A stretch of DNA of 64,000 nucleotides from a virus (lineage: Duplodnaviria > Heunggongvirae > Uroviricota > Caudoviricetes): IMG/VR virus record IMGVR_UViG_3300012347_000364, positions 158,826 to 222,825 of that record, one strand, 5' to 3'. The notes under the pieces were generated by a model, which did no database searches, was not told where the DNA came from, and was given only the letters and a program-made list of their open reading frames with translations. A program made the position numbers and the translations under genes. Positions 57,043 to 63,915 of the stretch are shown one piece after another (within the stretch, counting starts at the first letter, position 1; every line of letters begins with the position of its first letter).

Positions 57043-57303
57043 ATGAATATTATTCCAATTCGTGATAAGGTTGCAGTTGTGCAATTGAAAAACAGCACAA
57101 CTACCGACAGTGGTATTATTTTACAAGGCGATGTCTCGCAAGAAGCGAAGCGCGGTAAGGTAATCGCAGTCGGTCCAGAAGTACAAGATGTTAAGGAAGG
57201 CGACGTAGTCTTACTTGACTGGGTACATGCAATTCAATCCAAGATTGAGAATATCCCATTCTTCCTTATTAAAGAACAGCACGTGATTGCTGTTGTAGAG
57301 TAA
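57043..57303 (+). CDS. groES: Co-chaperonin GroES (Cpn10)
   Basis: P..DKV.V, T.SGII mobile loop, G.V.AVGP, VK.GD.V, E..V.AV. Confidence 0.9.
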   Translation: MNIIPIRDKVAVVQLKNSTTTDSGIILQGDVSQEAKRGKVIAVGPEVQDVKEGDVVLLDWVHAIQSKIENIPFFLIKEQHVIAVVE

Positions 57304-60225: not shown

Positions 60226-60253
60226 TTGACATTTGTTCAAATCAATGTATAAT
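60226..60253 (+). promoter_or_regulatory. Sigma70-type promoter
   Basis: TTGACA-16 nt-TATAAT. Confidence 0.7.
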
Positions 60254-60274
60254 TAATGTTTTAGAGGAACGAAA

Positions 60275-60406
60275 ATGAAGACGAAACCGATCGTCAAGGA
60301 ACGTAACTGCTTCGTTCGCTTGGCACTATTCCGAAAAGCAGGGTCGCACCGCAAGTCCAATAAGGCTTTGCGTAAAGCGGCAAACCAAATGCCTTTGGGT
60401 CTATAG
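60275..60406 (+). CDS. Small basic protein (43 aa) whose stop codon lies inside tRNA-Lys
   Basis: GAGGA RBS; MKTKPIVKERNCFVRLALFRKAGSHRKSNKALRKAANQMPLGL*; TAG equals tRNA positions 8-10. Confidence 0.6.
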   Translation: MKTKPIVKERNCFVRLALFRKAGSHRKSNKALRKAANQMPLGL

Positions 60407-60474
60407 TTTAACGGCATAAAACATCCGGCTTTTAACCGGTAAGACTCTCGGTTCGAATCCGAGTAGACCCACCA
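60397..60474 (+). tRNA. tRNA-Lys(TTT)
   Basis: GGGTCTA/TAGACCC, CCGG-CTTTTAA-CCGG, ACCA. Confidence 0.88.
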
Positions 60475-60556
60475 TATAAAAACATACTCGCTGAAGTTGG
60501 TTCAGTTAGACAGGGAGATCCAATTGCCTATGTTGTTGAGTGTGTTTTTATATGGT
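60471..60556 (+). ncRNA. Long-stem CCAUA element 6
   Basis: ACCATATAAAAACATACTC pairs with GAGTGTGTTTTTATATGGT. Confidence 0.6.
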
Positions 60557-60605
60557 TAATGTTATCGGCCGGTAACAACCATATTCGGAAGTCATGACTC
60601 CGAAG

Positions 60606-61756: not shown

Positions 61757-61920
61757 AATCCCCAGTCTTCGGTGCGCGTGCCGGTAACGTCAAGCTCAGA
61801 GGTAAGAAGACAAAGTTGATGTCGTGCAAGTGTTGCCACATGATCAACTGTAAATGGGAACATCGCTTTAAACAAGCAGAAAAAGAAATCAAGGAGAGCT
61901 CTAATGAAACGAGTAATTGA
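61753..61920 (+). CDS. Small basic Cys-containing protein (55 aa)
   Basis: MKSPVFGARAGNVKLRGKKTKLMSCKCC...; overlaps both neighbours. Confidence 0.5.
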   Translation: MKSPVFGARAGNVKLRGKKTKLMSCKCCHMINCKWEHRFKQAEKEIKESSNETSN

Positions 61921-62581
61921 GATTCGAGCCGCTGAAGGCGGAGAAGACAGTAAGTTGTTTGTGACCGATTTAGCACAAGCATACCAACGTTTAGGAACGA
62001 AGTTCGGCTGAACTACCCGCCTGATAGATGTACGTCTTGGCGAGTGTAGTTTAGAAGTTCAAGGCGCAGATCTATCCGGCTTAGATAACGAGCCAGGAGG
62101 ACACCGTATTCAGCGTGTACCTCCAACAGAACGTAAAGGTCGCGTTCATACAAGTACAGTCACTGTTGCCGTAATCGATGGTGAAAATAAGTACCAAACA
62201 TCCAACATCAAAGACTCTGACCTACGAGTCGAATGGTACTCTGGTACTGGCGCTGGTGGTCAACACCGTAATAAGCATCAGAACAGCTGTAGAATCACCC
62301 ATATACCATCGAACACTGTCGCGACGGCACAATGCCGCAGTAGACAGAATAGTTACAATGAAGCGATGGCTTCTATCCGCAGCCGTGTTGACTTTTCCAA
62401 CGAGATGCGTTATAATCAGAGTGTAGCGATCGATAGAAAGCTTCAAGTTGGTTCTGGTATGCGTGGCGACAAAATGCGCACTTATCGATTCCAGGATGAT
62501 GTTGTTAAAGATCACCAAACCAATCGATCTGCTAGTGTCAAGAAAGTGCTAGCGGGTAATTTTAATTTATTGTGGAGCTAA
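61904..62581 (+). CDS. Class I peptide chain release factor (RF1-like, no domain 1) with in-frame UGA at codon 36
   Basis: AGGAG RBS; IEIRAAEGGEDS.LF...L...Y, TGA 62009-62011, then E.GGHRIQRVPPTERKGRVHTSTVTVAV, GTGAGGQH.NK..NS.RITHIPS, RSR.NS, GSG.RGDK.RTY.F..D.V.DH. Confidence 0.85.
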
Positions 62582-62582
62582 T

Positions 62583-63092
62583 ATGGAAACGATTCGTTGG
62601 ATCGAAAACATTGCTTGGGACGACTGTAAGAACGGCTGGCATATGGATGCTGGTCCCAATGCTATGTTGATTCAGATTATGGATCCATGTAGCACATTCC
62701 CTACTCCTAAGCGTGAGTTTAAGGAGGTCCATCAGTTTGAATTTCTAGACATTGAGGATTCGGACGTTAAGATGGATCCTAATATGGGAGAATTTGCAAT
62801 TACAGACGAACAAGCACAAAAACTTGTTGACTTATTGCAAAAAGCAAAAGACAATAGCATGAATGTGATCGTTCATTGCTTTGCAGGTATCTGCCGAAGT
62901 GGTGCTGTATGTGAGTTGGGTGTAATGCTTGGCTTCACGGCTACAGATCGTTACAGACAACCTAACCTCCGAGTCAAACACAAAATGATGAAGTGCTTGG
63001 GTTGGACTTATGACGAAGATGAAAAATCAGTCGGCACCGGTGGAAGCATCAGTGCCGGTGGGATTCTTATCCCTTATAAAGATATGGAGTAA
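62583..63092 (+). CDS. Cys-based (PTP/DSP-fold) phosphatase
   Basis: VHCFAGICRSGAV (CX5R) loop; F.D acid loop. Confidence 0.85.
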   Translation: METIRWIENIAWDDCKNGWHMDAGPNAMLIQIMDPCSTFPTPKREFKEVHQFEFLDIEDSDVKMDPNMGEFAITDEQAQKLVDLLQKAKDNSMNVIVHCFAGICRSGAVCELGVMLGFTATDRYRQPNLRVKHKMMKCLGWTYDEDEKSVGTGGSISAGGILIPYKDME

Positions 63093-63095
63093 TAT

Positions 63096-63707
63096 ATGTC
63101 AAACGTGTTCGTTGTAAGCGATACGCACTTCGGTCACGTTGGCGTATGTCGCTTCATGCAAAATGATGGAGTAACTAAACTCCGTCCCTGGGACAGTCCG
63201 GAAGAAATGGATGAGGCAATGGTTAAGTCTTGGAACGAGACTGTTGGCCCAAACGATAAAGTATATCATCTCGGTGATGTGGTAATTAACCGACGTGCTC
63301 TTAGCACTGTTGCAAGACTTAATGGTGACAAGGTCCTTATTAAAGGGAACCACGACATCTTCCGTCTTGAAGAGTATACTACATACTTCAGAGATGTTAG
63401 AGCGTATCATGTGATGAGTGGAATGATCCTCAGCCACATTCCGGTTCACGCCGATAGCCTTGCTAGATTTGGCTGCAACATCCATGGCCACCTTCACGCC
63501 AACCGTGTAATGAAGCCAATCGGTGTTGATGCTCGAACTGGTGTGGTAAAGTATGGCAATCAAATTGATCCTAGATACTTCAACGTCTCTGTCGAGCAGA
63601 TTGGTTTTAAGCCAATTGCCCTCGAAGAGCTCAAGAAGCGTATTATTGAGCAGGGTGGTGAAATATCTTTCCGTCAAGGAAATGGTTCAGCACCCGTTGT
63701 CATGTAA
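63096..63707 (+). CDS. Calcineurin-like metallophosphoesterase
   Basis: SDTHFGH, HLGD, GNHD, SH.P, HGHLH. Confidence 0.9.
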   Translation: MSNVFVVSDTHFGHVGVCRFMQNDGVTKLRPWDSPEEMDEAMVKSWNETVGPNDKVYHLGDVVINRRALSTVARLNGDKVLIKGNHDIFRLEEYTTYFRDVRAYHVMSGMILSHIPVHADSLARFGCNIHGHLHANRVMKPIGVDARTGVVKYGNQIDPRYFNVSVEQIGFKPIALEELKKRIIEQGGEISFRQGNGSAPVVM

Positions 63708-63723
63708 CCTATAAGGATATATA

Positions 63724-63915
63724 ATGTCTGAGAAGTATTCAAAGTTTGAAGAAGTTGTTTTGTCAATGAAAGACGACTTCGAAAAGTTTTATGATAAAGA
63801 AAATAATGCTGCCGGTGCTCGCGTCCGTAAGCACTTGCAGACTTTAGCAGTTCTCTGTAAAGAAGGTCGTAAAGACGTTACAGAAGTTAAGGCCGCTCGC
63901 GCTGCTGCTAAGTAA
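63724..63915 (+). CDS. Histone H1-like (Hc1-type) small protein
   Basis: DFEKFY.K.N.AAG.R.RK.LQ.L...K..RK.V pattern. Confidence 0.7.
   Translation: MSEKYSKFEEVVLSMKDDFEKFYDKENNAAGARVRKHLQTLAVLCKEGRKDVTEVKAARAAAK

Follow-up and report, generated by a model that had tools for sequence, protein, structure and literature searches.

The closest described relatives, in design, of the gene considered here are the small ribosome-rescue factors, namely ArfA of Escherichia coli (YhdL, PF03889), which depends on release factor (RF) 2, BrfA of Bacillus subtilis (YqkK, PDB 6SZS) and ArfT of Francisella tularensis. In the arfA design the stop codon is removed by a stem that is cut by RNase III or causes termination, and in the brfA design a terminator lies before the stop (PMC8012679; PMC6881298), while ArfT is not regulated by stop removal (PMC8327144). 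Reviews expect further small rescue factors that lie beyond sequence search (PMC8012679, PMC6881298), and those already known are species-specific (PMC6881298). Here we describe a short peptide gene that ends inside a tRNA-Lys gene, in a window of 64,000 nucleotides (positions 158,826 to 222,825 of the IMG/VR record IMGVR_UViG_3300012347_000364). The window closes the complete genome of a large phage of freshwater type, which is 222,825 bases long and has a near-complete set of tRNAs. Judged by its sequence, the gene has a layout like those of ArfA and BrfA and is a member of neither family, and RNase P would be a new route of stop removal.

The gene is an open reading frame (ORF) of 43 codons rich in lysine and arginine (60275–60406, plus strand), starting with the ATG at 60275 and ending with a TAG at 60404–60406. 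Its final codons and the TAG fall inside tRNA-Lys(UUU) (60397–60474, plus strand, with an encoded CCA; Rfam 64.6 bits), the sole Lys tRNA found in the phage genome, and the TAG occupies tRNA positions 8–10. According to established tRNA maturation, RNase P is predicted to cut at the tRNA 5′ end (60396/60397, plus strand), which would leave 40 codons and 2 nucleotides, i.e., a non-stop message. Upstream, directly after a tRNA-Met, lies a sigma-70-type promoter (60226–60253, plus strand) matching the consensus at 12 of 12 positions, with TTGACA (−35, 60226–60231) and TATAAT (−10, 60248–60253) separated by a spacer of 16, and a Shine-Dalgarno word, GAGGA (60264–60268, plus strand), stands 6 nucleotides 5′ of the ATG. 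The promoter, the ribosome-binding site, the basic ORF and the position of its TAG had all been named in an initial annotation of this DNA and are present in the sequence. At a single locus the overlap is weak evidence, as tRNAs often carry U8-A9-G10.

Across homologs the pattern persists. A tRNA begins within 90 nucleotides of the glycine of the conserved motif in 113 distinct loci, and 112 of these have no stop before it. In these loci the tRNA starts 45–71 nucleotides after that glycine, in all three frames and at 12 distinct spacings. The first in-frame stop is reached between tRNA positions 5 and 28 or, in 27 loci, only past the whole tRNA; with so wide a variation the tails are not conserved and would be chance translations of the tRNA. 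The predicted cut always falls at least 15 codons after the motif glycine, so that the conserved core seen in the homolog alignment (residues 10–33, RN..V..A..RKAGxHxKSxKAxR; 60302–60373, plus strand) survives. For comparison, 14 further conserved ORF families whose genes adjoin tRNAs in these arrays overlap the tRNA at only 13 of 120 junctions and usually stop 1–14 nucleotides 5′ of the tRNA. Stops occur in the linker in the two other frames (28/98 and 12/98) and never in the reading frame. The lack of a stop before the tRNA is conserved far beyond chance across homologs, and the check proposed in the initial annotation, whether homologs stop ahead of the tRNA, did not refute it.

Genome packing could also create such overlaps, if a dispensable tail lost its stop once beside tRNA-Lys, the borrowed stop were read before RNase P acted, and the overlap were simply tolerated. 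The ready stop supplied by U8-A9-G10 fits this explanation, as do the prevalence of one frame and spacing class (56 nucleotides, stop at tRNA position 8, 35 loci), the many members with their own stop and the few control families that overlap tRNAs at times. We nevertheless regard it as improbable, since neighboring genes under the same pressure stop short of their tRNA, only the reading frame of the linker is free of stops, 27 loci read through the entire tRNA, and the terminators and stems inside cellular copies would be left unexplained.

These terminators and stems point to further routes by which the stop could be lost. Near-perfect stems of at least 15 Watson–Crick pairs (up to 26) occur in 14 phage or metagenome loci and 3 cellular loci, beginning just past the core and with the stop inside or behind them, and an intrinsic terminator precedes the stop in 13 cellular loci; both kinds of element sit at about the same place as the tRNA cut, or later. 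We infer that the stems are cut by RNase III. Of the 34 cellular loci in evenly drawn genome samples, 16 carry a stem or a terminator ahead of the stop, compared with 27 of 679 control ORFs (4%), a set that includes shadow frames. In a rough tree built on 34 columns, the stem and tRNA labels must change at least 4–5 times along branches with good support, which would suggest repeated switching between stop-removal routes. In five loci a TTGACA/TATAAT-like promoter of the following tRNA lies within the long stem that spans the stop, and there one sequence may be both a DNA promoter and an RNA processing stem.

The peptide ORF is, on sequence grounds, a real gene. Its close relatives number 108 and its family 596 representatives at E ≤ 0.001, the pN/pS relative to the window copy is 0.23 (uncorrected), indicating purifying selection, and N11, G23, H25, K27, K30, and R33 are invariant in the family alignment. 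One unpublished genome was excluded from the alignments, and no claim is based on it. Members were found in freshwater-type phages, three cultured phage records, bacterial tRNA arrays, and the chromosomes of Burkholderiales and other Gammaproteobacteria. The member in Acidovorax phage ACP17 (about 151750–151880) is unannotated in RefSeq, and its own stop overlaps the next gene. Scans of Pfam, PHROGs, NCBIfam, and PDB sequences gave no family match for the peptide, and the family had no match in PDB even at E 10; in the literature, with incomplete coverage, neither the family nor a non-stop mRNA made by RNase P or tRNA maturation was found described. The family is present in 32 of 201 sampled Burkholderiales genomes and ArfA in 3 of the same sample; the two never co-occur in 201 and 250 genomes, counts too small to carry meaning. 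An SD-like word precedes 63 of 67 viral tRNA-linked homologs, and an own promoter is found in only 13–21 of the 67, making it a local feature of a minority. Most viral copies lie about 15–30 nucleotides downstream of another tRNA, so that their mRNA would be a spacer cut from a tRNA precursor.

Of the 112 overlapped tRNAs, 111 are Lys(UUU) and one is Tyr, which might recall a cis-acting leader, in which a Lys-rich ORF would sense charged tRNA-Lys and ribosomes entering the tRNA would block its maturation, so that tRNA-Lys would be made only when scarce. The ORF is indeed Lys-rich, and ribosomes at positions 8–28 would melt the acceptor stem. Still, the invariant non-Lys residues and the low pN/pS show selection on the protein, the Lys codons have no AAA bias (305 AAA vs. 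297 AAG), and homologs exist without any tRNA, so that we rate a leader very improbable. For the near-constant Lys identity, ancestry suffices as an explanation.

Our analysis inclines, though only slightly, toward the view that the peptide is a rescue factor gated by trans-translation and using a host release factor. The peptide gene and tRNA-Lys would share one transcript, whose maturation by RNase P would strip the stop. By established trans-translation, the ribosome would then stall after codon 40 with 2 nucleotides in the A site, and transfer-messenger RNA (tmRNA) would tag the peptide, leading to its degradation. If tmRNA were overloaded or put out of action, as may happen in infected cells when nucleases of the host cleave tRNA or mRNA, the 40-residue peptide would escape tagging and accumulate. 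By analogy to ArfA, BrfA, and ArfT, its basic part could bind the empty mRNA channel and allow a class-I release factor of the host to free the nascent chain. The same transcript would resupply tRNA-Lys. Since anticodon nucleases, PrrC among them, are known to attack tRNA-Lys(UUU), tRNA resupply together with rescue would make a coherent counter-defense unit. The phage genome itself encodes a permuted beta-type tmRNA (113,469–113,949; 137.6 bits against an Rfam cut-off of 84; tag ending in ALAA), which was counted in favor of gated rescue; its beta type suggests a betaproteobacterial host for the phage. More tentatively, at somewhat less than an even chance, we propose that the peptides form a further, unrelated family of RF-recruiting rescue factors, distributed over phages, rtcB operons, and the stress tRNA arrays of bacteria. 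In the phage form, the non-stop mRNA would arise when RNase P matures the overlapping tRNA-Lys, and tRNA resupply would thereby be coupled to rescue as a counter to tRNA-cleaving defenses.

Comparison with the known factors gives a mixed picture. With ArfA the peptide shares a short, basic sequence with a conserved N-terminal part and a dispensable, unconserved tail, and some family members also share stem-type stop removal (by RNase III or termination) and a PL(F/L)R-like word after an N-capped helix; the main stop-removal route here, in contrast, is a tRNA and RNase P. The BrfA-like intrinsic terminator before the stop is found in the 13 cellular members and not at this locus, and a run of Phe..Gly..Lys-Ser-x-Lys into a short helix resembles BrfA by eye. 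However, against a BrfA sequence checked with the PDB 6SZS chain, His34/Arg36 and Lys49-His50 are unmatched, the similarity does not extend to the residue set of Arg25, Phe31, His34, Arg36, and Lys49-His50, and BrfA belongs to a different phylum. ArfT is likewise basic and about 40 residues long, but the family has no KKGGS-like word; its lack of regulation provides a precedent for members keeping their own stop. Ribosomal protein bS21 (PF01165) was rejected as a relative, with 4 columns aligned, a score within shuffles and no Pfam match, and a likeness to T4 gp30.9 proved wrong.

Several findings weigh against the rescue reading. Homology to ArfA is not detectable: in agreement with the initial annotation, which had seen no identity to it, no member of either family alignment matches PF03889, and the profile–profile score lies within shuffles. 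Sequence likeness to BrfA, tried as a candidate relationship, is not above shuffles either (p 0.35). Neither the Lys-His motif nor the KGKGS motif, both of which ArfA would lead one to look for, appears in the column conservation of the family. The isolated 39-residue model (helix 12–19, loop, helix 29–38; pLDDT 85, pTM 0.32) lacks a strand like that which ArfA and BrfA add to RF2, and with this model Foldseek and VIA-align returned no informative fold match. Furthermore, 79 cellular loci, nearly all from Burkholderiales and largely from Comamonadaceae and Thiomonas, keep an ordinary stop without an element before it; a single pattern-biased search supplied 61 of them. About 11 loci from phages or metagenomes, the cultured ACP17 and V45v66 among them, also keep their own stop, and after dereplication 42 of 90 loci do so. 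A single ancestral event may account for much of the link to tRNA-Lys, so that the 112 loci cannot be taken as independent, and their shared ancestry means that the counts overstate independence. A complex prediction for a cellular member with the RF2 of the same genome scored 0.01, which speaks neither for nor against. The ArfA-like layout of stop removal put forward in the initial annotation stands for this gene and most phage copies, with the tRNA overlap, stems, and terminators of homologs in its favor, but does not extend to all members, and stop removal is not a family-wide rule, with one clade of Comamonadaceae and some phages retaining their stop.

The nearest family, by a weak link in sequence comparison, would be the uncharacterized DUF7230 (PF23876). 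The two profiles align collinearly over 27 columns (E about 0.003, probability 6–11%), shuffled profiles scored as high in 3 of 100, 0 of 40, and 0 of 40 trials, and an ungapped test gave p 0.05–0.09. DUF7230 is also a language-model neighbor at 0.87, on which two such searches agree, has a phage and proteobacterial spread and includes some members with a stem or terminator over the stop. No member of the peptide family reaches the cut-off of the DUF7230 Pfam model, and DUF7230 differs in ending in Lys-His and in keeping its own stop in 37 of 41 phage copies. Toward ArfA, the E-value of DUF7230 on E. coli arfA (0.96) and the DUF7230–ArfA profile scores (reached by 7 of 100 shuffles) are leads only. 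Three DUF7230 members near tRNA genes have an ArfA-like Tyr-x-Arg-Lys-Gly-Lys word and a long stem before the stop, and could possibly bridge DUF7230 and ArfA. In T4 (NC_000866, about 161587–161703, minus strand), an unannotated 39-codon DUF7230 gene lies directly upstream of arn, and its stop overlaps the arn start.

The genomic neighbors of the bacterial copies point, as far as gene order can, to translation stress. Among the 34 sampled cellular loci, rtcB ends directly upstream of the peptide gene in 7 and lies within 1.5 kb in 2 more, and tRNA-linked bacterial copies lie in long tRNA arrays ending in HNH and rtcB genes. Such arrays of bacterial GC content hold up to 22 tRNAs in 5 kb, with the peptide gene preceding tRNA-Lys. 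Long tRNA arrays of this type are induced by translational stress in Anabaena (PMC8421152). The setting resembles that of rtcB–prfH operons and the Anabaena trn operon in its rtcB and HNH neighbors, its tRNA arrays and its translation-stress context, with the difference that a non-catalytic peptide of 40 residues, rather than a release-factor homolog, follows rtcB; prfH was not found beside the rtcB–peptide units in six regions examined.

This setting could also accommodate a peptide whose non-stop gating is real but whose job in translation stress is another one. It might assist RtcB or tRNA repair as a cofactor, protect or silence ribosomes, or inhibit either a host nuclease or tmRNA–SmpB. 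The two-gene rtcB–peptide units without prfH and the variety of contexts are consistent with this idea, as are the Comamonadaceae copies, which close an operon of ada-alkA, ogt, and eamA, the absence of a rescue-factor motif and the presence, in the hosts checked, of a third, short RF-1-domain protein, probably ArfB. Nevertheless, those small basic proteins that are known to be produced from programmed non-stop mRNAs act in ribosome rescue (PMC8012679, PMC6881298), rtcB is not adjacent in most carriers, and DUF7230, a possible relative, shares a terminal Lys-His motif with ArfA and BrfA. A different job is in our view unlikely, though it deserves more than passing consideration.

Downstream in the window lies an RF1-like release-factor gene without domain 1 (61904–62581, plus strand), which has the PPT and GGQ motifs and an in-frame TGA at codon 36 (62009–62011). 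All 78 viral homologs retain this TGA, within a Gly-TGA-(A/G)C context, and it is likely a read-through switch sensing RF2 activity, so that the phage RF would also be a conditional gene. Such conditionality, and the distance of 1.5 kb between the two genes here, could suggest that the peptide and the UGA-interrupted release factor form a dedicated two-part rescue module, a partnership that the initial annotation had entertained. It is borne out neither by the carriers, where an RF-1 domain was seen in just 4 of 25 records (1 of 9 when only complete virus records are counted), nor by the RF loci with at least 6 kb of upstream flank, only 2 of 23 of which have the peptide upstream, and no RF of this kind lies next to the cellular copies. 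The two genes travel separately, the phage release factor being no obligate partner of the peptide, and a dedicated module of the two is very improbable.

Other features of the locus concern the maturation and decoding of its transcript. A long stem starts in the CCA end of tRNA-Lys (60471–60557, plus strand; −32.7 kcal/mol), and its 5′ arm recurs 3′ of tRNA-Lys in most homologous loci; it is possibly a 3′ processing signal. In one locus, only a 5′ fragment of tRNA-Lys appears to be left, fused to ACCA and the trailer stem, and the stop lies at the foot of the long stem. The phage genome also carries, at 130–204, a tRNA with a CUA anticodon that resembles an amber suppressor (Rfam 47.8 bits) and could read through the TAG of the peptide in unprocessed transcripts. 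A recoded genetic code was ruled out, with long ORFs ending in TAA 133 times, TGA 71 times, and TAG 16 times. Further genes embedded in the tRNA region encode GroES (57043–57303), a tyrosine/dual-specificity phosphatase (62583–63092), a metallophosphoesterase (63096–63707), and an Hc1 histone-like protein (63724–63915), and the GroES and Hc1 genes stop 6 and 9 nucleotides, respectively, before the next tRNA.

The family described here is recognizable by gene layout alone. If the proposed function is true, RNase P would join the known ways of making a programmed non-stop mRNA, and phages would gain a feedback-controlled rescue tool next to their tRNAs. RtcB, in turn, would be tied to non-stop rescue, and DUF7230, including the unannotated T4 gene, may thereby be given a function.
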